This document shows positions 1-10,363 of a stretch of DNA of 10,363 nucleotides, one piece after another. Made by a program: the position numbers and the translations under genes. The notes beneath the pieces were generated by a model that searched no databases, was not told the DNA's origin, and worked only from the letters and a program-made list of their open reading frames with translations. Within the stretch, counting starts at the first letter, position 1; each line of letters opens with the position of its first letter. The stretch comes from Elusimicrobiota bacterium (GTDB taxonomy: Bacteria > Elusimicrobiota > Elusimicrobia > Elusimicrobiales > UBA9959), in NCBI GenBank assembly GCA_037137395.1, contig JBAXKK010000083.1, positions 1 through 10,363 on the forward strand. The letters are read 5' to 3'.

Positions 1-551
1 ATCGGTGTCTTCTGGGCGCCGAGCGCGCGGGTGAGGATGTTCTGAAGAGGAGATTTGTCCGCCTGCTCCTGTGTGAATAGTCCTTGGCGCACATGTTCCA
101 TTACCAGAGAATGGTCCTCCGTGATTTGCTGCAGCACTCCGTCGCGGAAAAGATAGACGCGGGAATCTCCGATATGGGCTATAATGATCCTGTCGCCGCT
201 CAGCAAGATGGCGCTCAGGGTCGTGCCCATGCCTTTTTTTTCGGGGACGGAATTACCGGCTTCGTAAATTACGCTGTTTGCAAGTTGTACGGCGAAGCCA
301 AGTTGGTTTGTTTCAAGGGAGTATTTGTCGTCGTAGGCTCCGGGTTTAAGGCCGGTACGCTGCATGGAATCCAATTTGTCGCGGGTAACATTTACAGCCA
401 TGGCTGAGGCCACCTCGCCGGAACTGTGTCCCCCCATGCCGTCAGCCACTATTGCCAGGCTCATGGCCGGGTCGGCCAGAGCGCAGTCCTCGTTATTGCT
501 GCGCATCTTTCCGGTATCCGACAAAAAAGCCAATTCCATCTTTAATCTCAT
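1..551 (-). CDS. PP2C/PPM-family (Stp1/PrpC-like) Ser/Thr protein phosphatase; 3' end runs off the window
   Basis: Not in the ORF track; hand translation gives MRLKMELAFLSDTGKMRSNNED...AIVADGMGGHSSGEVAS...GMGTTLSA...HIGDSRVY...TEDHSLV...NILTRALG, the standard PPM motifs (RxxNED, DGxGG, GTT, GDSR, DHS, TRALG). The ATG at 551-549 overlaps the upstream TGA (ATGA); an in-frame alternative ATG is at 539. Confidence 0.95.
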   Translation of the reverse strand, partial: MRLKMELAFLSDTGKMRSNNEDCALADPAMSLAIVADGMGGHSSGEVASAMAVNVTRDKLDSMQRTGLKPGAYDDKYSLETNQLGFAVQLANSVIYEAGNSVPEKKGMGTTLSAILLSGDRIIIAHIGDSRVYLFRDGVLQQITEDHSLVMEHVRQGLFTQEQADKSPLQNILTRALGAQKTP

Positions 552-3550
552 TTTCTTTCTTCCTCCGGGTAGATCAGCGGGAGCGTTTTTTCAAAATCAG
601 GGCCGCTCATTGTCAGGGGCGCCGGCTTTGGAGGCGGCTGTGGGATGGGCTGCGGCCGGGGCGGCGCCTCGGCGGTCAGCTCCTCCGGTTTTTTTTGCGA
701 TACAGGAAGGGCGGTTACAGGCTGATTAAGTTCCACTTTGTTGAGCCCCGGGGTTAAAGTATCTGGCCGGGGCGCCGCCGGTTCCGGTTTTGGAACCGGA
801 ACTTTTAGCGGCCGGGGTTCCATCTTCAGAGTCTGTGCCACCCCGAGTTCCTTTTCAATCACGGCCAGGGGCGGCGCCTTTTGCTGTGGCGCGGCTGAGC
901 CCGGTTGGGGTTGAACGGGGGCGGTGGGATGGATCGTGGATCCGGCCAACGGCATCTCTGGCGCCGGCTTAGGGGTGGTAACCGGGGCAGTCAAAACTTT
1001 TCGCTCCGGCTTTGAAATTTCTGTGGTCGCGGGCGCATTGCTGAGCAGCAGGCGCCTTATATCTGCCGCCATTTCGGCGCCAGTCTGATATCTTTCATCC
1101 GGGTTTTTCTTAAGCGCTTTGTCAAGTATCGGCGCGATCCCTTTGGGCAGATCCGGCCTGACCAACATGGGGTCGGGGTAGGGGTCCGAGCTTATCTGGA
1201 AGAAAAGAGTTCCGATAGCTTCTCCCCCTTTCCAGGGGCGTTCTCCGGTAAGAAGTTCATACATCGTTACACCCAGCGAGAAAAGGTCAGCCCTCCCATC
1301 CACTTTTTTTCCGGAAATTTGCTCCGGGCTCATGTAGTACGGGGTGCCAAGCACGGTTCCCGTGGCGGTCTTGGAAGAAGCCTGAATGCGGGCTATGCCG
1401 AAGTCGGCCACGCGCAGCGCCCCGTCCTCAAGTAGCATGATGTTGGCCGGCTTTATGTCACGGTGTATGACTCCGTTCTTGTGGGCGTAGTCGAGGGCTT
1501 CGGCGGCAGTAGCCATGTAATCCAGCACTTTTTTTACTGGTAGCAGATTATCCTTTGAGGCCCATTTTTTTAGATCCTCGCCTTTCAGAAGTTCCATAGC
1601 CATGTAGGCGATATCCTGTTCTTCTCCAGCGTCATAAATCTTCACGATGTTCGGGTGGGAGAGATTTCCGGCCGCCTGGGCTTCCCGAAAAAAACGATCC
1701 TTCATTTCTTTCAGCGCTCCCTCTTCAGTCCCCTCCTCGAAACGCAGTGTTTTAATGGCTACAGTCCTGTTGATCTTGGGATCGCGTCCCAGGTAAACTA
1801 TGCCCATGGCGCCTTTGCCCAGCTCCTTTGTGATCTCGTAGCGGCCGAGGGTCGGGGTTGTCGAGGATCCGGCAACCAGCATAGTGGACTCGCTGGTCTT
1901 GCCGACACCGCCTCCGAAGACCGCGCCGTCCGAAGCCTTGTTGAGTATCTTAATCTTGCTCTGGATATCTTTGTAAGCGGGGTCCTTGGTCGCTATGTGT
2001 CCGTATACAGCGACGGCTTTATTGAACTGGCGCTTTCTCTCAAAATCCAGGGCCAGATTGTAGAGCAGCTCTTTCATCGTGTCGTCCACGGGGCAGTTCC
2101 TGAACTTCTCAAAGGAGAGGTCCAGCATGCCCTGCCCCTGGAAGGAGAGGCCCAGCATCTTGTTGGTCTCTATGGCGGAAACCTCTATAAGTTCTTTTTT
2201 CTTTTCCGTGGAAAAAAAACGTTTTGTAACTATAAAAATATAGCCTGCAACCAGCAGGAAGGAAGGGTAGGCAGTTTTGACCCAGAGGCCTTTGTGCGTA
2301 AACAGGTGTATGCCCGCGCCGCTTAAGCCGGCCAGCGCCAGGGCCGCCAGAACCGCGCCCAAACCGGCCCTGAGACGCGGCAGCAGGAAAGTGATGAAGA
2401 GTCCCGTGAGGATAATAAGTCCCAGCTCCGCCTTCGTCGCCCAGTCCGGCTTTACTATGAAATGACCGTGCAGGATGTTTTCCGTGACATTGGCCGAGAA
2501 TTCAACGGCCGGAAGATTTTTTTCTACCGGCGTTACGTAGAGGCTTCCGACTCCCTGTGCGGTGAGGCCGATAAGCACGATTTTATTCTTAAAAGCTTCG
2601 GGAACAATCTTGCCGTTAAGCACGTCGTAAAAGGAATAATATTTGAAGGACGTTTTGCTTTTATTGAACGCGACCAGCATGGAGGAAGAGTAATCCAACG
2701 CGACCTTTCGGTTGCCCAGCGCAAGCAGGCGCCCCGGAGTTATCAGAGCGTCGGAGGGATTAAGCTTTAGATATGTCCTGGCCAGCTCTTCCGCGAATGA
2801 CGGATAAAAATTCTGGTTGTAGGCGAGCAGTGGGTATTCCTTCCTGACGGTCCCGTCGCTGTCGTTGAAAATGTTTACATGGCCTATGCCCGCAGCCGAG
2901 GATGCCAGTATCTCAACCGGCGCGGTGAAGTCCGAGCCTTCTATCTGGATGTCGGAGGCGTAGGCGGACTGTGTCACGGTGGCGGCGTACTTTTTAAGCC
3001 AATCCGGTTCCGGCCTCGGCTTTGAGACCATCTCGTCGGTTTTAAAGTACATGGGCAGTACGACATTCCCCGCCCCTGAGATGGCGGCCGCCAGCTTGGC
3101 GTCGTTATCCATGTCTTTGGCCGTCTCAAGCAATATTTTTTCAAATTCCGATTCCTTCGTGGTCTCTTTTATTTTTTTAGCCGCCAGAAGTTCCAAATAT
3201 TTACGGCGTAAAAGATCAGTAATCACCAGATCTTTGTTGTTTTCAGGTTCCGAAAAAAGAATATTCAGACCGATGACGGCGGGTCTGGCCGTGCCGGTGG
3301 AAAGCCATGTGATTATGTCCGCCACGCGTGAGCGGGGCCAGGGCCAGCGTCCTATTTTTGAAATACTGTCATCATTTATCTCTATGATGGCGATTTCGTT
3401 TTTGGAAGAGGTTTGCGCGGTGAGCTGGGCCCGGAAGTCGTAAAACTTCAGTTCCAGGGGTTCTATTCCGGTCCCGGAAAAATAGAAGAATAACACGGCC
3501 AGCGTTATGGCCACACCCCATATTGTGTTGGAAAAAATAAATCTTTTCAC
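548..3550 (-). CDS. CHASE2-domain membrane Ser/Thr (Hanks-type) protein kinase: N-terminal TM, CHASE2, 3 TM, TPR-like segment, kinase, Pro-rich tail
   Basis: CHASE2 hallmarks: LELKFYDFR, IAIIEINDDSISKIGRWPWPRS, GHVNIFNDSDGTVR, FKNKIVLIG, followed by three hydrophobic helices. Intact kinase motifs: LGKGAMGIV, VAIK, HRDIKPAN, DFG, GTPYYMSPE, DLFSLG. GTG start with a GGAGG SD upstream. Confidence 0.95.
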   Translation of the reverse strand: MKRFIFSNTIWGVAITLAVLFFYFSGTGIEPLELKFYDFRAQLTAQTSSKNEIAIIEINDDSISKIGRWPWPRSRVADIITWLSTGTARPAVIGLNILFSEPENNKDLVITDLLRRKYLELLAAKKIKETTKESEFEKILLETAKDMDNDAKLAAAISGAGNVVLPMYFKTDEMVSKPRPEPDWLKKYAATVTQSAYASDIQIEGSDFTAPVEILASSAAGIGHVNIFNDSDGTVRKEYPLLAYNQNFYPSFAEELARTYLKLNPSDALITPGRLLALGNRKVALDYSSSMLVAFNKSKTSFKYYSFYDVLNGKIVPEAFKNKIVLIGLTAQGVGSLYVTPVEKNLPAVEFSANVTENILHGHFIVKPDWATKAELGLIILTGLFITFLLPRLRAGLGAVLAALALAGLSGAGIHLFTHKGLWVKTAYPSFLLVAGYIFIVTKRFFSTEKKKELIEVSAIETNKMLGLSFQGQGMLDLSFEKFRNCPVDDTMKELLYNLALDFERKRQFNKAVAVYGHIATKDPAYKDIQSKIKILNKASDGAVFGGGVGKTSESTMLVAGSSTTPTLGRYEITKELGKGAMGIVYLGRDPKINRTVAIKTLRFEEGTEEGALKEMKDRFFREAQAAGNLSHPNIVKIYDAGEEQDIAYMAMELLKGEDLKKWASKDNLLPVKKVLDYMATAAEALDYAHKNGVIHRDIKPANIMLLEDGALRVADFGIARIQASSKTATGTVLGTPYYMSPEQISGKKVDGRADLFSLGVTMYELLTGERPWKGGEAIGTLFFQISSDPYPDPMLVRPDLPKGIAPILDKALKKNPDERYQTGAEMAADIRRLLLSNAPATTEISKPERKVLTAPVTTPKPAPEMPLAGSTIHPTAPVQPQPGSAAPQQKAPPLAVIEKELGVAQTLKMEPRPLKVPVPKPEPAAPRPDTLTPGLNKVELNQPVTALPVSQKKPEELTAEAPPRPQPIPQPPPKPAPLTMSGPDFEKTLPLIYPEEERK

Positions 3551-3572
3551 CTGTTGCCTCCGTTAATATCTG

Positions 3573-5708
3573 CTACTTGCTATCGGAATTGTGTCCAGCG
3601 TAATAAGCCAGTGTTTCTTCCATAAAATAAATATTGGTCATCAATAATAAAAAAACAGCGAGGAAGAGTAAGCCGACTGTGTTGAAAATGGCGTTCTTGA
3701 TTCTGATTGCGCGCATATCTGAGTATTCAAGTCCGGCTATCCGGCTGAGTTCCTCGCGCGGCGCCGGCGCTATTTCGGCTGGTTTTGCGATCGGAGGTTT
3801 TTCAATGGGGCGTCCTTCGATATCGAACTCCGGCATTGAGGCTTCCTGCGTCAGCAGATCTTTCCGGTATTTTAGGTAGCTCTGGTGTCTGAGATTCTGT
3901 ACGCGAATGGCGTCGCGGTTGACCATGTTTTCCGTGATTGCGCTAATATGCGGGTTTGTGAACATTATTGATATTAGCGCGTTTGCCGCCAAAAAGAAAA
4001 GAGCGGGGCTGGAGAGAATGGTGAATTGTTTCTGCGTAAGCGCCGCGGCCAGGCCCGCCAGCGCCGCGGTGCCGGCCAATATCAGATAGATCTTATCGGG
4101 GGGAACCGGCTGGCCTGCCTTAAAATAGATGTAGGTAAACAGGATTGACATCAGGTAAGCTGTTATGGAACCGGCCTTTGCCCCCCAGTGCGGTTTAAAA
4201 ATGAACTTTGAGGCCGCGAGAAACAGGCACAGAGAATAGCTCGGCAGATTGGCGGGCGAGGCGATGTTTTCGGAGGCGACCTTGAGGCATAAAAAAGTTT
4301 TTGATACCATGTCGGCAGTCTCCGGCGCCGGAACGTATACGCCGGCGGTATAGGCCGTCAAAGCGGAGGCGCACGACAATAAAAGGCGCATAGGAGTAAG
4401 CTTAAGCGGCTTCATTATCAGCGCCCAAATCGTGAGGGCGAGGCCGGCCGTAAAGAAGAAGCCGGCGCCATACGGATTCGCGGCGAAAGGAGAGATCAGC
4501 GATTTAGCCAGTCCGGGTTCGGGGTTGCCGGCGGAACCGGTCAGCAGGAAGCAGCCTATGGCCGCGAACGTTACCGCGAAATATGTTGTGGTTTTTATAG
4601 TGTTGTGGAGCGCCGGAAGCTGGAGATTTTTGCCTTTAAGAGTCTCCCTGCGGGGTGAGACGGGAGCGCCGAGCGGGAGGGCGCTGTTGACCGCATCAGC
4701 GGGCCGCGAAGCCTGCGCGGGCATCAGGCGGTCGGAAACCAGTGTGGCTATAGGCTGCCTGTACTCGGGAGGCGGAGGAGGCGCGGGTGTGGCGGCCGCT
4801 TCCGCTGCGAAAAACTCTGAGATCTTGGGCAGATCGATGGACCGTTCATTTGAAACGGCCGTCCCGTCATTTTCGGCCGCTCTGAGGCGCTTTATTTCAC
4901 CTATCACCTGAGCGGCGCTTTGGTAGCGATCTTCAGGTTTCTTACGCGTGAGCTGCTCCAGGACGCGGGAGATCCAGAGCGGAAAATCTGGTTTAAGAAG
5001 TATTATGTTGGGGAAAGGAATGCCGATGTGCTTGTGTATGACTTCTATGGAGCTTTTGCCTTCAAAAGGATATTTGCCGGTAAGCAGATAAAAATAAGTG
5101 GCGCCTATGGCGTAAAGATCGGCCCGGTGGTCCACCTTGCCGGCCAGGCCCTGCTCCGGAGACATGAAGTAGGCGGTCCCAACCATTTCGCCGGCCATAG
5201 TCAGCTGTTTTTCCTCGCTTATGCTGCGGGCTAGGCCAAAGTCCACGATCTTCGGGTGGCCGTCGGTGCCCAGCAGAATGTTTGCGGGTTTTATGTCCCT
5301 GTGTATTATTGTTTTTGAATGCGCGTGCCGCAGCCCGTCTAGCACTTCCAGTATTATATCGGTCGCGGTGTCCGGGTTCAAGGGGCCTTTTTCCGCGATT
5401 ATATCCGCGAGACTCTTGCCCTCGATATAGGACATTATGATGAAATATGAGCCGTTCTCTTGGCCAAAATTATAAATGTGGACGATGTTCGGATGCTCAA
5501 GCTTGGCGGCTGAGCGGGCTTCCCGCAGAAAGAATTCAATATTGCGCTCTTCGCGGGCGAGTTCCGCGGAAAGAATTTTAACGGCCACCATCTTATTGAT
5601 GGCGTCCTGCCGCGCCGTATAGACAGAACCCATGCCGCCCTGGCCTATCTTCGCCAGGATCCTGCAGCCCGCGAAAGCGGTGCCTATTAACTTGTCTGTT
5701 TCAGGCAT
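3573..5708 (-). CDS. Ser/Thr (Hanks-type) protein kinase with N-terminal catalytic domain and polytopic (~8 TM) C-terminal membrane region
   Basis: Motifs IGQGGMGSV, VAVK, HRDIKPAN, DFG, GTAYFMSPE, DLYAIG; a Pro/Ala linker; about eight hydrophobic segments counted by eye. The ATG overlaps the upstream stop (TGATG, 5706-5710). Confidence 0.93.
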   Translation of the reverse strand: MPETDKLIGTAFAGCRILAKIGQGGMGSVYTARQDAINKMVAVKILSAELAREERNIEFFLREARSAAKLEHPNIVHIYNFGQENGSYFIIMSYIEGKSLADIIAEKGPLNPDTATDIILEVLDGLRHAHSKTIIHRDIKPANILLGTDGHPKIVDFGLARSISEEKQLTMAGEMVGTAYFMSPEQGLAGKVDHRADLYAIGATYFYLLTGKYPFEGKSSIEVIHKHIGIPFPNIILLKPDFPLWISRVLEQLTRKKPEDRYQSAAQVIGEIKRLRAAENDGTAVSNERSIDLPKISEFFAAEAAATPAPPPPPEYRQPIATLVSDRLMPAQASRPADAVNSALPLGAPVSPRRETLKGKNLQLPALHNTIKTTTYFAVTFAAIGCFLLTGSAGNPEPGLAKSLISPFAANPYGAGFFFTAGLALTIWALIMKPLKLTPMRLLLSCASALTAYTAGVYVPAPETADMVSKTFLCLKVASENIASPANLPSYSLCLFLAASKFIFKPHWGAKAGSITAYLMSILFTYIYFKAGQPVPPDKIYLILAGTAALAGLAAALTQKQFTILSSPALFFLAANALISIMFTNPHISAITENMVNRDAIRVQNLRHQSYLKYRKDLLTQEASMPEFDIEGRPIEKPPIAKPAEIAPAPREELSRIAGLEYSDMRAIRIKNAIFNTVGLLFLAVFLLLMTNIYFMEETLAYYAGHNSDSK

Positions 5709-6658
5709 CAGAGTCTTCTGTCCTTTACGTAGAGGCTGCCCTTGCGGTCGGGAAGTTCTTTGGCGTAGTGCTTAAGCTCAGCCGCGATTTGCACCAGCTT
5801 CCCGTAGTGCTTAAGCGCTTTTGGGGTTATAGCCGCGATCGTCAGCGATATTATAGGAAAATTGCGGGTCTTGTTTTTTCTGTCCAATGTGACGATATAG
5901 CCCCTCTGTCTGTCTTCTTCTGTATAAAAAGATCCTATCGTTCTGTCGAATTCCTTCACTATCTCTTCTCCCGCAGCCTCCAGTAGTTCCGGTTTCGCGA
6001 CCAGCACAAAATCGTCACCTCCTACGTGCCCCAGGAAATAATCATGGCCGGCGTGCGCCTTGGCCGCGTCGCTGAGTACCGAGGCTATATGTTTAATAAC
6101 AATGTCTCCCTTGGCATAGCCGTAGACGTCGTTATAAGCCTTGAAATTGTCGGCGTCAATGTAGGCGAACGCGAACGGAATCTCAGTCGCCATGCGCTTA
6201 AGGACGTGTTCTTCTATGGCCGGACTGCCCGGCAGGTGGGTGAGCGGGTTGAGGGAAATGTCCGTGCTCTTGCGTTTAAGGATGCGGTTGATGCGCGCGC
6301 GCAGTTCCCGCATGTCAAAAGGCTTGGTTATAAAGTCGTCAGCGCCCAGTTCTATGGTCTTAACTTTAACGTCAATCTCGGAAACACCGCTGAGGATGAT
6401 AATCGGGAGGTCGTGGGTGTCGGGGTTGTCGCGGATGCGCTTGCAGAGAGCATAACCGTCGAGACCGGGCATCCTGAGATCCATAAGGATGAGGTCCGGC
6501 TTCTCGGTGTCTAGAAAACGCAGAACTTGCTCTCCGTTGTCCAATGCAACTACGCTGTAATTAAATTTTTTCAGCACTGCCGAGATCAGCAGACCCACAT
6601 TCGGATCATCGTCAACGACCAACACTGTTTTATCGAGCACGCAGTCCCCCAATCCCAT
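5708..6658 (-). CDS. Response regulator receiver + GGDEF-family domain (GGDDF variant); putative diguanylate cyclase
   Basis: REC: VLVVDDD, DLILMDLRMPGLDG (phospho-Asp), LSG, DDFITKPF. GGDEF domain: NPLTHLPG, DADNFKAYNDVYGYAKGD, GHVGGDDF. The real start may be the GTG at 6640, which follows a GGGGGA SD-like sequence. Confidence 0.92.
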   Translation of the reverse strand: MGLGDCVLDKTVLVVDDDPNVGLLISAVLKKFNYSVVALDNGEQVLRFLDTEKPDLILMDLRMPGLDGYALCKRIRDNPDTHDLPIIILSGVSEIDVKVKTIELGADDFITKPFDMRELRARINRILKRKSTDISLNPLTHLPGSPAIEEHVLKRMATEIPFAFAYIDADNFKAYNDVYGYAKGDIVIKHIASVLSDAAKAHAGHDYFLGHVGGDDFVLVAKPELLEAAGEEIVKEFDRTIGSFYTEEDRQRGYIVTLDRKNKTRNFPIISLTIAAITPKALKHYGKLVQIAAELKHYAKELPDRKGSLYVKDRRL

Positions 6659-6733
6659 CAGTAAAAACTAAACGCGTAAACACTTTTAACGGCGCGGCCC
6701 GGCTGTGAGAGAAATGGAGGCGCGCCGATTTTA

Positions 6734-6763
6734 ATTATAAGATATATGTAATCCTGAAAGCAA
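6734..6763 (-). promoter_or_regulatory. Putative sigma70 promoter for the REC-GGDEF/kinase/kinase/phosphatase operon
   Basis: Minus strand TTGCTT (6763-6758), 18-bp spacer, perfect TATAAT (6739-6734), about 75 bp upstream of the first ATG. Confidence 0.6.
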
Positions 6764-6818
6764 TTGCCGGGGCAGGCTTCCGGAGCGTGGCGGCGCGGTG
6801 AATATTTTGAAAGACCCA

Positions 6819-6848
6819 TTGCGAAAAAAAGCAATTATGTGGTAATAT
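6819..6848 (+). promoter_or_regulatory. Putative sigma70 promoter for the HTH-REC regulator
   Basis: TTGCGA (6819-6824), 18-bp spacer containing extended -10 TG (6840-6841), then TAATAT (6843-6848), about 45 bp upstream of ATG 6893. Confidence 0.45.
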
Positions 6849-6892
6849 ATCAAAAGCCCAAAAACTTCAAAAACACAAAAAGGTTTAATTTT

Positions 6893-7471
6893 ATGCGCGT
6901 AAATACTTATTCCACTTTTGACATCGCCAAAATGCTGGAGATAGTTCCCGGGACAGTAGCGAACTGGGTGGACAGCGGCAAACTGAAGGCGTTCATCACT
7001 CCGGGAGGACACAGGCGCGTATACATGGAGGACCTGCTCGCTTTTTTGAAGGAAAATGCCATTCCTGTGCCGGAACTTCTGGCAAATTCTTCCCGCAGAA
7101 AAAAAATACTCATTATAGAAGATGATGAAAAATTCCTGAAGTTGATTGTTAAGGCTTTGAAAACTTTTAAGGATTTTGAGCTGCTGACGGCGACAGACGG
7201 TTTTCAGGCAGGCCAGATTGTGGAGGGGAGCAAGCCCGATCTGGTGGTCCTTGATATAATGCTGCCGGATATCAACGGCTTTAAGGTCTGCGAACTGATA
7301 AAAGCTAAGAACAAAAATACCAAGGTGATCGCCATAACAGGCTACGATTCTGAGGATATAAAAAAGAAGATATTAGATTCCGGCGCTGACGCTTATCTTA
7401 TAAAACCCTTTCATTTTAAAACTCTTTTTGAACATATCGGTAATTTTCTCGGTTTAAAAATCCGGAAATGA
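6893..7471 (+). CDS. Response regulator with N-terminal excisionase-like/MerR-type HTH (HTH_17) and C-terminal receiver domain (192 aa)
   Basis: YSTFDIAKMLEIVPGTVANWVDSGKLKAFITPGGHRRV is the HTH_17 signature (W..G.L....TPGGHRR). REC: ILIIEDD, DLVVLDIMLPDINGF, AITG, DAYLIKPF. Start reassigned from TTG 6764 to ATG 6893, which has an AAGGT SD-like sequence and sits where the domain begins. Confidence 0.92.
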   Translation: MRVNTYSTFDIAKMLEIVPGTVANWVDSGKLKAFITPGGHRRVYMEDLLAFLKENAIPVPELLANSSRRKKILIIEDDEKFLKLIVKALKTFKDFELLTATDGFQAGQIVEGSKPDLVVLDIMLPDINGFKVCELIKAKNKNTKVIAITGYDSEDIKKKILDSGADAYLIKPFHFKTLFEHIGNFLGLKIRK

Positions 7472-7525
7472 GAGTCCCAACAACGGCGACAGATCCGCGC
7501 TAGTGGCATCCAATAATAATCTTAG

Positions 7526-7541
7526 TGTAACTTTTGTTACA
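7526..7541. promoter_or_regulatory. Perfect palindromic operator-like site TGTAAC-TTTT-GTTACA
   Basis: 6-4-6 perfect inverted repeat 12 bp upstream of the -35 hexamer. It also reads as TGTAA-N6-TTACA or GTA-N8-TAC, the Crp/NtcA-type geometry. Confidence 0.6.
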
Positions 7542-7553
7542 TTCGGGCACACC

Positions 7554-7582
7554 TTGACAAAAATCAAAATAGGTGCTAGAAT
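7554..7582 (+). promoter_or_regulatory. Near-consensus sigma70 promoter
   Basis: TTGACA (7554-7559), exactly 17 bp, TAGAAT (7577-7582), with extended -10 TG at 7574-7575. Predicted +1 near G7589. Confidence 0.85.
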
Positions 7583-7588
7583 CAATTT

Positions 7589-7643
7589 GTCAGGGCTGCC
7601 TCCCTCACCCTACCCCCCCAAAAGGCAGCCCTGCCTTTTTTTT
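7589..7643 (+). ncRNA. Candidate ~55-nt single-hairpin small RNA with C-rich loop
   Basis: Bounded by the strong promoter and a U8 tract. 11-bp perfect stem CAGGGCUGCCU (7591-7601) / AGGCAGCCCUG (7623-7633); 21-nt loop CCCUCACCCUACCCCCCCAAA; no ORF inside. Confidence 0.65.
7591..7643 (+). terminator. Intrinsic terminator-like hairpin + T8
   Basis: GC-rich 11-bp stem followed by CC and T8 (7636-7643). The loop is unusually large for an ordinary terminator. Confidence 0.7.
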
Positions 7644-7693
7644 GTCTAAAAACATGATGCCCCGGCTGTTTTCCCTAGTGCGGACGCAAAAGT

Positions 7694-7749
7694 AGCCATA
7701 AGCTTTATAAGGAGTTCCTTAAAAGCGTATGGCTTAAAGCCTATGGCTT
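7694..7749. repeat. Three copies of AAAGC(G/C/T)TATGGCT, one inverted and two tandem, forming an imperfect hairpin
   Basis: Inverted copy 7694-7706; direct copies start at 7722 and 7736 (14-nt period); inner stem TAAGG/CCTTA at 7708-7721. Lies just downstream of the stop codon of the minus-strand operon. Confidence 0.7.
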
Positions 7750-7760
7750 ACGGCAATGAG

Positions 7761-8693
7761 TTACTTTGGGAAATATCCGTAGCGGAACTGGAACATTCCG
7801 AGTACATCCCAGCCCCCTTTGAAGGTGAGGTAGGAAATTTCAAAATTCATTTTCAGGAGCGTGCCCAGATGGAAGTTAAATAGCGTGGGGCTCTGCGACG
7901 CGCCCTGCGGCATCATTACTTCCACGCCTATCGGTGAATTGGGTTTGGGCAGCCACATCAGGCCGCCGAAAACCATGCCGGTGGGGATAGTCAGGCTGGT
8001 TACTCCGCTTCGGCTAAGGGCTTCTTTTGACAGGAATTCAGAAAGCTGATAGATGACTTTTGGCATATCCCCGTCCGAATAGCCGGCGTTCAGGATGAAC
8101 TTGGGGTGGAGCCGCTTTGTCAGGACGATATAGGCGTTGGCGTAAGTATCGGTTTTCTTGCCGGTTGCTTTAACCGTAAGGTTGAAAGTTCCGGCTATGG
8201 GGGGCTGGGGCGCGTCGCGGAACATGAAAATGCCCTGCACGCCGGATGCCACGGCCGGACGCCAGCGTCCCTCGGTCTGGATCAGCATTTTAGTGTCGGC
8301 GCTGAGCATCCAAAATCCTATGCGGTCCAGATAGTTGGTTTTCTCTATGGTCCAGTCGTATTTGTTTTTTCCGTAAAGGCGTCCTATGTAATAGGCGGCG
8401 TTAAAATCAAGTCCAAGACCTATGGAGTTTTTCCCCCGGCCGCGATAGGCGGTCGGCATGAGCACAATGCCGCTTAGAGGCACCTTGGTTTCCTCGTATT
8501 GCGCGGGTTTGGACGGCATGCCGGGTTTGGCCGCCTGCGGGAGATAAGAGGCCGTGGAAAGAGACAGACCTTCCAGAGTGGTTGTGCTGGGCGCGGGAAT
8601 GACCTGCATCATCTGCGCGGCGGCGGGGCCGGAGAAGGCGATGGTCAGGAGAAAGACTGTGTAGAGTGGTTTTTTCATATTATCAATTATCAC
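7761..8693 (-). CDS. Hypothetical secreted protein, probable outer-membrane beta-barrel
   Basis: Sec signal peptide MKKPLYTVFLLTIAFSGPAAA|Q. Start is either GTG 8693, overlapping the pgpA stop, or ATG 8678. Alternating amphipathic strands (IGLGLDFNAAY, FILNAGY, MNFEISY) and an aromatic C-terminal strand GMFQFRYGYFPK. Confidence 0.7.
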   Translation of the reverse strand: MIIDNMKKPLYTVFLLTIAFSGPAAAQMMQVIPAPSTTTLEGLSLSTASYLPQAAKPGMPSKPAQYEETKVPLSGIVLMPTAYRGRGKNSIGLGLDFNAAYYIGRLYGKNKYDWTIEKTNYLDRIGFWMLSADTKMLIQTEGRWRPAVASGVQGIFMFRDAPQPPIAGTFNLTVKATGKKTDTYANAYIVLTKRLHPKFILNAGYSDGDMPKVIYQLSEFLSKEALSRSGVTSLTIPTGMVFGGLMWLPKPNSPIGVEVMMPQGASQSPTLFNFHLGTLLKMNFEISYLTFKGGWDVLGMFQFRYGYFPK

Positions 8694-9217
8694 TTGCCGA
8701 TCCAGAAAATCATCAAAAGTCTGGTAAGCAGGTTCGCTTCCAGCCCAGCCAGAGCGTCGTCGAACACTACGCCAAAGCCTCCGGCCAGATTTTTCTCAAA
8801 CTTTTTTATGGGCCAGGGCTTTAATGTATCTAATATTCTAAAAAAAATGAACGCGGTTGTTAAGGAAAATATTGTGCGCTCCATGAACGCAGCCGCTATC
8901 CAGTAACCGGCGATTTCGTCTATAACTATGCGGGGATCATCGTGAGTGCCGTATATCCGGGACGCACGGTCCGCCACCTTCACTGAGAAAACAATAAATA
9001 TCGCCAGAAAAACACCGTACGCCGTATCGCCTGCCGGCAGGAGCGGGAACATCAGGAAAGCCAGAGCTGTGCCCATAAACCCGGCCCCGGTAAACTTCCT
9101 GAACCCTGTCAGTTTCTCCGGGATAAGGCTGATGAAAAATCCGGTTGCGAAGAACTCGGTAAGTTTCTCCCCGAAACTCATTCCCGGCACTCGCGCGCGG
9201 AGTTGGGAGGGCGTCAC
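8690..9217 (-). CDS. pgpA: Phosphatidylglycerophosphatase A
   Basis: Motifs GTHDDPRIVIDEIAG, FFRILDTLKPWPI, GGFGVVFDDALAG. Start reassigned to GTG 9217 (GTGA overlap with the pgsA stop) instead of 9352, giving 175 aa. Confidence 0.92.
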   Translation of the reverse strand: MTPSQLRARVPGMSFGEKLTEFFATGFFISLIPEKLTGFRKFTGAGFMGTALAFLMFPLLPAGDTAYGVFLAIFIVFSVKVADRASRIYGTHDDPRIVIDEIAGYWIAAAFMERTIFSLTTAFIFFRILDTLKPWPIKKFEKNLAGGFGVVFDDALAGLEANLLTRLLMIFWIGK

Positions 9218-9825
9218 GCTTTTTTCTCGCTCCAGGATTTCCTGATAAGTTCCCGGTGATTGTAAAGGTATATAACCCCGCTTATAAGCGTTACAAGGGC
9301 GGTGAGGACCGTCAGGTCGTGGGAAATCCGTCCTGAATGCCCGCTTAGCCATGTGAGCCAGTCAAGGTCGATAGGGTGCTTTCGCAGCCAGGCCTTGAGA
9401 ACCAGCAGCGCCATGATAATAAACGCGGAGGTCAGCTGTACGGCCGTCTTGAACTTGCCGGCTGCCTCCGCCTTCATAACTTCTCCGTTCAGTGCGGCCA
9501 GCACCCGCAGCGTGGAGATAGTGAACTCCCGCAGCAGAATTATGAAGACCGCCCATAGCGGTATCGTCAGTTCACGAATTGAGGCGAAGGCGAGAAAGGT
9601 CGACATGATCAGGATCTTGTCGGCCAGCGGGTCAACGATGGCGCCGAAGCGGGTGGTTGTCCGGGTGCGGCGGGCGATAACGCCGTCCACATAGTCGGAA
9701 ATGCTGGCGACTGTCAGCAGTATAAAAGCGATTATTACGGACCAGAAGCCGCGGTAGAATATCAGGAAAAATATAATAAGGCTCAGGAGCATTCTCATGA
9801 GCGTTATGCGGTTTGCTAGGGTCAT
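9214..9825 (-). CDS. pgsA: CDP-diacylglycerol--glycerol-3-phosphate 3-phosphatidyltransferase
   Basis: NRITLMR N-terminus; CDP-alcohol phosphotransferase motif DYVDGVIARR...FGAIVDPLADK; LREF..S.LR; GKFKT..Q. Adjacent to pgpA. Confidence 0.95.
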   Translation of the reverse strand: MTLANRITLMRMLLSLIIFFLIFYRGFWSVIIAFILLTVASISDYVDGVIARRTRTTTRFGAIVDPLADKILIMSTFLAFASIRELTIPLWAVFIILLREFTISTLRVLAALNGEVMKAEAAGKFKTAVQLTSAFIIMALLVLKAWLRKHPIDLDWLTWLSGHSGRISHDLTVLTALVTLISGVIYLYNHRELIRKSWSEKKA

Positions 9826-9831
9826 AAAGGA

Positions 9832-9964
9832 AGCGCGGCAGCTGGACAGCGCGGCAGCGAGATAGTATTAAAAGGTGAATATGCCGACATAACTCCTGTG
9901 TCTTTCATGGTATGTCTTCCCGGTTTCTAACTGTCGCGCTGTCTTGCTGCCGTGCTGTCGAGCT
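9832..9964. repeat. Two inverted arrays of degenerate octamers (consensus AGCNNGRC) flanking a ~65-bp core
   Basis: Plus strand 9832-9863: AGCGCGGC AGCTGGAC AGCGCGGC AGCGAGAT. Minus strand 9964-9933: AGCTCGAC AGCACGGC AGCAAGAC AGCGCGAC. Confidence 0.75.
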
Positions 9965-10363
9965 AATTATTAAACTCAAGTACTTCTGTGCCTTTGGGCG
10001 GTATGAATCTGAAGAGCGCCTTGTCAAGGGAGGCGTTCTTTTCGGGGTTTTCCAACCTGGTCCGGATGGTTGTGTTTTCCACGGTGAGTGCGGCCTCTGC
10101 GGGAAAATAGTCGGTAGAAGACAGGGTCAGCGTAAGCGTGTATAACCCCGGATTGTGTTTGCCGGTAAGGACCATGGTGATGTAATAAGGTGCGGCTGTG
10201 TCTTTGGCGACCTTTACATTATTTTTTTCAGTAAGGGCCGCGTAGTTACCGAAGTCCATGATGCCGGAAAAATTGCTGCTCTGGTTCTTTTTCCACGCGC
10301 CCCACGACGTGCGCACGGCCTGAGAATCTTCGGGTTTGTATACCCACAGCTCTTTCTTATCGG
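9963..10363 (-). CDS. lolA: Outer-membrane lipoprotein carrier LolA family protein; 5' end outside the window
   Basis: The frame stays open upstream of 10316 to the window edge: DKKELWVYKPEDSQAV resembles LolA DG..lW.Y.P...Q. C-terminal LDKALFRFIPPKGTEVLE matches the LolA F.F.pP.G..v motif. Confidence 0.8.
   Translation of the reverse strand, partial: DKKELWVYKPEDSQAVRTSWGAWKKNQSSNFSGIMDFGNYAALTEKNNVKVAKDTAAPYYITMVLTGKHNPGLYTLTLTLSSTDYFPAEAALTVENTTIRTRLENPEKNASLDKALFRFIPPKGTEVLEFNN

Follow-up and report, generated by a model that had tools for sequence, protein, structure and literature searches.

The DNA analysed here, referred to below as the window, is a stretch of 10,363 nt from an Elusimicrobiota bacterium of the order Elusimicrobiales (assembly GCA_037137395.1, contig JBAXKK010000083.1, positions 1 to 10,363, forward strand), whose genome, G000 in our comparisons, amounts to 2.7 Mb and is 98.9% complete. 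Between positions 7554 and 7643 a promoter is followed by a single hairpin with a C-rich loop and a U tract which, judged from gene anatomy, conservation, strand and independence from its neighbours, is a small RNA gene that stands on its own and is conserved within the Elusimicrobiales. The features of the locus are the following:

7554–7582, plus strand: sigma-70 promoter, with the -35 box TTGACA (7554–7559), a 17-nt spacer and the extended -10 box TGcTAGAAT (TG at 7574–7575, TAGAAT at 7577–7582).
7589–7643, plus strand: predicted small RNA of ca. 55 nt, with its putative start at G7589, 7 nt past the -10 box.
7591–7601, plus strand: 5' arm of the stem, CAGGGCTGCCT, 11 bp, pairing with 7623–7633.
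7602–7622, plus strand: C-rich loop of 21 nt with 14 C, including a C7 run.
7623–7633, plus strand: 3' arm of the stem.
7636–7643, plus strand: U tract (T8), the stem doubling as an intrinsic terminator.
7597–7607, plus strand: seed (core 7598–7606), made of the stem top and the loop start and complementary to a motif in a partner RNA.
7526–7541, no strand: palindrome TGT(A/G)AC-N4-GT(T/C)ACA, candidate site for a CRP-family regulator.
7554–7567, no strand: FNR-type palindrome TTGAC-N4-(A/G)TCA(A), overlapping the -35 box.
5708–6634, minus strand: REC-GGDEF gene (Pfam), stable syntenic partner and candidate target, with a G5 run before its start.
6896–7471, plus strand: HTH_17-REC response regulator gene (Pfam), not a required part.

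An initial annotation of this DNA had proposed a novel, independently promoted hairpin RNA of ca. 55 nt at this place, and the promoter, the position of G7589, the 11-bp stem, the 21-nt loop with its 14 C and C7 run, and the U8 tract are each where it had put them; as it had also stated, the element is free of coding sequence, no open reading frame (ORF) of at least 50 amino acids overlapping it. The promoter scores 11/12, the top value among the 10 promoter-like sites in the window, and of the 77 sites scoring at least 11/12 in the genome only two, including this one, have a hairpin of about -20 kcal/mol and at least six T within 70 nt. The strand 7589–7643 is predicted to fold into one 11-bp hairpin of -20.8 kcal/mol (z = -5.0), a stability reached by none of 200 shuffles, with every loop base at least 99% unpaired. 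A rival, shorter hairpin at 7620–7639 is 12 kcal/mol weaker than the long stem; only 33 of 52 distinct homologues preserve it whole, whereas the long stem is kept. The element is a single copy in the source genome. A search of the window with the covariance models of Rfam release 15 (E<=5) rendered one match only, at 632–694 and none at the element, and the homologous loci gave seven weak matches in six loci, all far below the gathering scores.

Scanning the genome collection for the exact loop alone rendered 82 stretches, 67 of them with the same stem; 65 of these stem-bearing matches have titles, 59 being labelled Elusimicrobia and six only 'bacterium', and the remaining 15 of the 82 have neither stem nor promoter. 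The same scan of metagenomes gave 69 matches, 60 with the family stem. The hairpin is present in 28 of the 36 genomes of its own family, to which G025 adds a diverged copy with a longer stem, and in three genomes (G040, G056 and G266) from two sister families, with second copies in G001 and G040. Seven own-family genomes (60–96% complete) gave no copy, and neither did those small-genome genera of the sister family that were searched. Among 301 genomes sampled across the phylum the exact loop occurs in 22, all of the same order, and strong matches to a covariance model were limited to this order as well (74 + 42 genomes searched). Inspection of 36 weaker covariance matches identified the copy in G025 as a diverged true one and that in G156 as a C-rich hairpin lacking a promoter, the others resembling ordinary terminators or fragments. 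These figures do not show absence outside the order, because the first covariance pass scored only 78–137 candidates per genome. In viral contigs there were no matches to stem plus loop, and 26 to the loop only, none with the family stem or promoter; the surroundings of 29 REC-GGDEF homologues, taken from non-carriers or from less closely related genomes, showed no copy.

The initial annotation had suggested looking for covariation in the stem. Among 43 distinct sequences 98.9% of the stem cells are paired and the C-rich loop is conserved. Double changes occur at two stem pairs, and a metagenome copy adds a third such pair; the covariation is thin and comes from few events. One-sided changes yield G-U pairs on the plus strand, which favours an RNA read from that strand. 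In 52 distinct copies five of the 11 stem pairs never vary, U7601 is constant (its 3' partner changes in four copies), and a U tract is present in 47, while neighbouring proteins drop to 53% identity. This invariance is not a search artefact, because the loop-only searches recovered the same stem in the proportions given above. Homologue loops measure 19–23 nt and contain a C5–C8 run, and the seed core 7598–7606 is exact in 49 of the 52 copies, the other three differing solely by C-to-U changes.

The promoter is conserved too. From 72 loci examined, three of them cut short and one lacking a promoter by pattern, 68 were left that correspond to 62 distinct promoters. The 17-nt spacer is found in 61 of the 62, the TG extension in 56 of those 61, and in 53 of the 62 the distance from the end of the -10 box to the stem GGG is exactly 10 nt. 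Of the 76 distinct copies that share this spacing, 74 have a purine as their predicted first base and 72 a pyrimidine just ahead of it. The outcomes that the initial annotation had named as telling against it were a plain terminator, an unconserved loop or promoter, and an Rfam match; none came out. By this comparison of sequences we regard the hairpin as belonging to a real, as yet undescribed small RNA family.

Two palindromes bear on how this promoter could be controlled. Allowing for up to one mismatch, the upstream one is found in 37 of the 62 distinct promoters, 33 of them 7–8 nt before the -35 box; in the window the distance is 12 nt, and the whole genome has three such sites. The second one, which we call FNR-type by comparison with what we take to be the FNR consensus, appears as TTGAC-N4-RTCA in 45 of 61 promoters, and the information content is 1.1–1.5 bits at spacer positions 11–13 vs 0.04–0.5 at positions 8–9 and 14–18. 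Two CRP/FNR-family proteins are encoded in the genome, one of them FNR-like, with an N-terminal Cys cluster, on contig C38, the other having a recognition helix that presumably recalls that of NtcA. The FNR-like gene is present in 42 of 45 family relatives, the three lacking it being also among those without the RNA, and in three of 13 genomes of the sister family, two of which carry the hairpin; the search did not find it in the carrier G040 (83% complete). The upstream palindrome resembles the motif of the CRP-family protein TTHB099 (PMC7662524). Taken together, these sequences point to control of the hairpin promoter by the CRP/FNR family, any assignment of protein to site being putative.

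Similar promoters occur elsewhere in the genome. At C1 64823 and 117341, C5 11111 and 39448, and C8 26083 the -35 box overlaps TTGA(C/T)-N4-ATCA, like that of the hairpin, and these promoters precede genes for signal-peptide proteins, several of which we take to be protease-like. A TTGACAAGTCAA promoter heads further structured leaders or stand-alone RNAs that are conserved in relatives (C2 near 106534, C8 near 259, C12 near 17353), one of which resembles a cyclic-dinucleotide riboswitch. Five loci of such RNAs gave no Rfam match at gathering score, and the TTGACAAGTCAA promoters possibly define a regulon of non-coding RNAs.

With regard to the neighbouring genes, the RNA had been regarded in the initial annotation as the output of the adjacent signalling cluster with its HTH_17-REC regulator, a view that is not borne out. 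Among the 54 loci with enough flank the regulator lies upstream in only 33, and G006 (96% complete) keeps the regulator, the REC-GGDEF gene and also the downstream gene without the hairpin; the stable neighbour is the REC-GGDEF gene, at most 1.5 kb away in 49 of the 54 loci (44 divergent upstream, five downstream), and the promoter points to CRP/FNR-family control. Because the regulator is upstream in only those 33 loci and G006 has its gene and no hairpin, the hairpin is not the terminator of the regulator. A plain terminator of that gene, or else a DNA element (a minus-strand G-quadruplex) to which a promoter was added by chance, is thus largely refuted and keeps hardly any probability: the hairpin does lie here 120 nt behind the regulator stop and the minus strand does read G7-TA-G3-TGA-G3-A-GG, yet the promoter, its spacing and the start bases are conserved, 21 of the 54 loci have no regulator upstream, the wobble changes favour a plus-strand RNA, and one G tract is shortened to two in many copies.

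The next gene was also said to be convergent, which is correct in the window but does not hold as a rule, the longest downstream ORF being co-directional in 48 of 62 loci and convergent in 14, including this one. The promoter could accordingly serve the downstream gene, with the hairpin as a regulated terminator in a cis-acting leader or attenuator, perhaps opened by a partner RNA invading the 5' arm. This is favoured by the prevalence of co-directional ORFs, by the five of 52 copies without a good U tract and by the few copies that have 11–63 nt of extra 5' sequence. We nevertheless consider it quite improbable, given that the downstream gene is convergent in the 14 loci just mentioned, that it is kept without the element in G006, and that its identity varies, with products that include, by their translations, a membrane protein, REC-GGDEF and an ATPase that we take to be MoxR-like.

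Two further features lie downstream in the window. At 7761–8693 the minus strand encodes a protein of 310 amino acids that starts like a signal peptide and falls in no Pfam or NCBIfam family; a feature search rendered unnamed Elusimicrobiota clusters and, lower, DUF3034. At 7696–7758 there is a multi-copy repeat with a palindromic TAAGGA-TCCTTA core between 7-base units, represented in the genome by eight exact cores, 159 runs of at least three GCnTAnR units and 57 runs of AGGGnnn units, and by many copies in G001, G002, G008, G016, G019 and G025.

A candidate partner for the hairpin was found among the 77 strongest promoters of the genome, one of which, on contig C41, stands ahead of an exact 11-nt complement of 7597–7607:

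C41 ca. 5690–5867, minus strand: partner non-coding RNA, with its own promoter, a G/U-rich body and a long terminator.

The promoter of this RNA carries the palindrome TTGAC-AA-GTCAA and is the same TTGACAAGTCAA promoter as that of the structured leaders and stand-alone RNAs mentioned above. Homologues exist in seven more genomes at one syntenic site, which lies between two conserved genes, with lengths of 127–210 nt and diverged, G/U-rich bodies of 72–142 nt, and Rfam gave no match to them other than weak ones far below gathering scores. The word GAGGGAGGC, the exact complement of 7598–7606, is present in all eight recovered partner homologues and is the sole 9-nt word common to the eight bodies, at offsets from 17 to 103; its complement spans the top four stem bases and the first five loop bases, and no conserved ORF follows it. 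Three partners were recovered by whole sequence, that of G016 by the motif, and that of G032 by terminator, promoter and motif. Those of G010 and G019 were recovered by terminator or promoter matches outside the motif and constitute an unbiased test, because the blast matches covered only these parts and the motif was not selected for. When hairpin and partner are folded jointly, the predicted gain for the six pairs computed is 3.8–11.7 kcal/mol. Of 100000 dinucleotide shuffles of the hairpin, 1023 (ca. 1%) contain the 9-nt complement and 39 (0.04%) the 11-nt one, and shuffling the loop alone gives a chance of 2%, figures that are suggestive and not proof, because GAGGGAGGC contains GGAGG and several candidates were looked at. 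No partner match was obtained in G006, where no hairpin was found, or in G025, where it is diverged, and the partner pattern matched viral contigs twice, neither time with the partner layout. Behind the hairpin gene of G010 there are two tandem repeats of 111 bases, each containing an inverted seed piece and the 3' half of the hairpin; they hold the seed complement twice and may be a rearrangement or an assembly artefact.

As regards messenger RNA targets, the source genome uses Shine-Dalgarno sites, and in a relative the 16S has the usual end; no Hfq was found in the genome. A run of at least five G within 25 nt of the start is present in 39 of 42 family orthologues of the fnr-like gene (one of 43 was dropped for having no start), compared with 91 of the 1908 predicted genes of this genome and one of 24 fnr homologues outside the family. 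The REC-GGDEF gene has G5 before its start in 45 of 46 rows, read by eye. For the genes that we take, from their translations, to be greA and phosphofructokinase, a G run is found in 11 of 19 family members vs none of nine outside the family, and in six of 10, respectively; an ATPase gene used as control has it in none of 19.

Action by pairing through the C-rich region, as the initial annotation had proposed, remains the most likely one. With moderate confidence, and arguing from sequence and predicted folding, we favour a trans-acting pairing RNA that consists of the terminator hairpin only, whose loop would bind G-rich strands and which would be checked by its partner via a toehold and stem invasion. 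RNA polymerase would start at G7589, the stem would fold and transcription would end at the U tract. The open loop would then pair in trans, independently of Hfq, with G-rich single strands and would repress translation by masking G-rich ribosome-binding sites, in the manner of RoxS and B11/6C. The G/U-rich RNA of C41 would be a sponge or partner, GAGGGAGGC docking on the first loop bases and invading the top four stem pairs, and the sequence of the 5' arm could be frozen because of this proposed invasion. CRP/FNR-family proteins would set the level of the hairpin RNA through the two promoter palindromes.

Several observations weigh against this proposal. The partner was not recovered, with narrow queries, in the carriers G004, G008, G009 and G027, and the eight partners, coming from four genera, are not independent. 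Owing to the GGAGG in the motif, both RNAs could share a Shine-Dalgarno-like word independently; moreover, the motif is predicted to be largely paired inside the partner RNA, and no compensatory change was seen between hairpin and partner. Shuffled loops pair at least as well with the fnr sites in 204 of 300 cases, and the fnr G run is absent in the carriers G056 and G266 and present in four genomes in which the RNA was not found. Nor is G5 before ATG enriched where the RNA occurs, the median ratio being 1.62 with it (n=28) vs 1.66 without it (n=7), and genomes of other orders having 2.56 (n=19). The messenger targets are thus not pinned down, and the genes with G runs are candidates only.

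Other pairing possibilities were rejected. Pairing with fnr is not specific to the order, and the best duplexes with ribosomal RNA are no better than those of shuffled loops (13/60 for 23S, 45/60 for 16S). The longest genomic complement, 14 nt on C24 ahead of a truncated rpoN-like gene, is not conserved in the closest relative, and a minus-strand ORF behind the G-rich, Shine-Dalgarno-like reading of the element was discarded, homologues of the element showing no conserved start after it. The rpoN-like gene (C24 ca. 14920–15110) is whole in G001 and lacks here some 950 bases, its leader and C-terminal end remaining.

It can also be the case that the roles are reversed, the G/U-rich RNA being the acting regulator or a ribosome-binding decoy and the hairpin only its antagonist, with no messenger targets. 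The best-supported pairing is indeed the one between the two RNAs, and the messenger targets failed two controls. Yet conservation of the loop is just as high in its 3' part (CCUACCCCCC), which the partner motif does not use, and the hairpin is present in many more genomes than the partner, though it was searched for far more widely; such a reversal seems to us very improbable.

A protein could also be the reader. The RNA would then be a protein decoy or form a small ribonucleoprotein, in which a KH-type or RRM protein or Rho recognizes the invariant stem and the C-rich loop, RNA pairing being incidental. Here the stem is frozen in sequence and not in pairing alone, as shown by its five invariant pairs; the genome contains two RRM genes and one of KhpA/B type. 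By contrast, the stems of cuckoo RNAs vary (PMC4615179), and for the invariant stems of IsrR protein binding was suggested (PMC9410917). The partner complement, however, offers a reason for the frozen state of the top of the 5' arm that needs no protein, and the seed variants, all C-to-U, retain pairing to G. No TROVE/Ro60 protein was found in the 98.9% complete genome, with a control detected in 2 of 14. For these reasons we deem a protein reader unlikely. The two RRM-protein genes of C2 26990–27778 are nearly identical and in tandem, each with its own promoter-like region.

Going beyond the favoured trans-acting pairing RNA, one may picture in the free-living Elusimicrobiales a Hfq-free circuit in which a lone hairpin silences sites with G runs, including those of the FNR-like regulator and REC-GGDEF, and a dedicated sponge opens its stem by toehold strand invasion, a picture that we offer as doubtful. 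Within it, and just as tentatively, the pairing RNA would be about the smallest possible, and the box of the FNR-like regulator would overlap the promoter of the hairpin itself. If true, the Elusimicrobia would gain a defined riboregulator, with the logic of its promoter and with its partner RNA and candidate targets named, and sponge binding would be seen to be able to freeze the sequence of a stem.

Some other RNAs were observed in the source genome. Two paralogous units on minus strands (C149 near 1740 and C19 near 3249) comprise a strong promoter, a hairpin of ca. 50 nt and a U tract; without Rfam match, they appear to be a second minimal small-RNA family. At C77 9687–9990 a tRNA-Thr is followed by two degenerate tandem copies of itself. 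The Rfam model for 6S RNA gave no match in the genome.

Bacterial Y RNA goes with a Ro60/TROVE protein in the genome, and the lack of a TROVE match here led us to reject that class. The literature searched on small or non-coding RNA of Elusimicrobia, supplements being outside the search, contained no regulatory RNA of the phylum, nor was the loop word described in it, though supplementary motif lists could still hold it. Comparison with C-rich RNAs of other bacteria begins with RepG of Helicobacter pylori, in which the site of pairing is the terminator's C/U-rich loop, the second stem-loop suffices on its own, and the targets are G runs in leaders (PMC8295292). The hairpin shares with RepG the single-stranded C-rich terminator loop and the location beside an orphan response regulator; it differs in being a terminator hairpin alone instead of two stem-loops, in its phylum, in having no Rfam match and in that no long variable G repeat was identified as its target. 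AbnZ of Caulobacter crescentus is likewise Hfq-independent, its C-run loops binding G repeats at the ribosome-binding site, but it has three hairpins and is part of an operon (PMC11724286), a comparison that on our side rests on the Rfam scan of the window. The cuckoo/CcsR RNAs of Alphaproteobacteria have a similar anti-Shine-Dalgarno-like loop, but comprise two to four hairpins with CCUCCUCCC and highly variable stems (PMC4615179), whereas here there is one hairpin with an invariant stem, and CCUCCUCCC is in none of its 24 loop variants. B11/6C of Actinobacteria pairs with its targets through a C-run in hairpin loops, that of the terminator among them, and chaperone independence is stated in a title cited there (PMC12395582); it has more than one C loop and an actinobacterial range, in contrast to the one loop and the own order of the hairpin, which has no Rfam match.

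A similar design is that of RoxS/FsrA and the sponge RosA of Bacillus subtilis, where a C-rich RNA and a stand-alone second RNA with a G-rich complement are each under their own transcription factor (PMC8216469); no Hfq was found here, and all eight recovered partners likewise stand alone and conserve a G-rich complement. RoxS contains several regions rich in C, and RosA has three rich in G within ca. 229 nt (PMC8216469), whereas here one hairpin faces one predicted pairing site of 9–11 nt that reaches into the stem, with no sequence match to either. By Rfam, hairpin number or loop word, the RNA is a member of none of the families compared. If the proposed pairing is true, the design of a C-rich RNA plus sponge known from Firmicutes arose again, in minimal form, in a distant phylum, and the hairpin would be a natural equivalent of the engineered single stem-loop of RepG.
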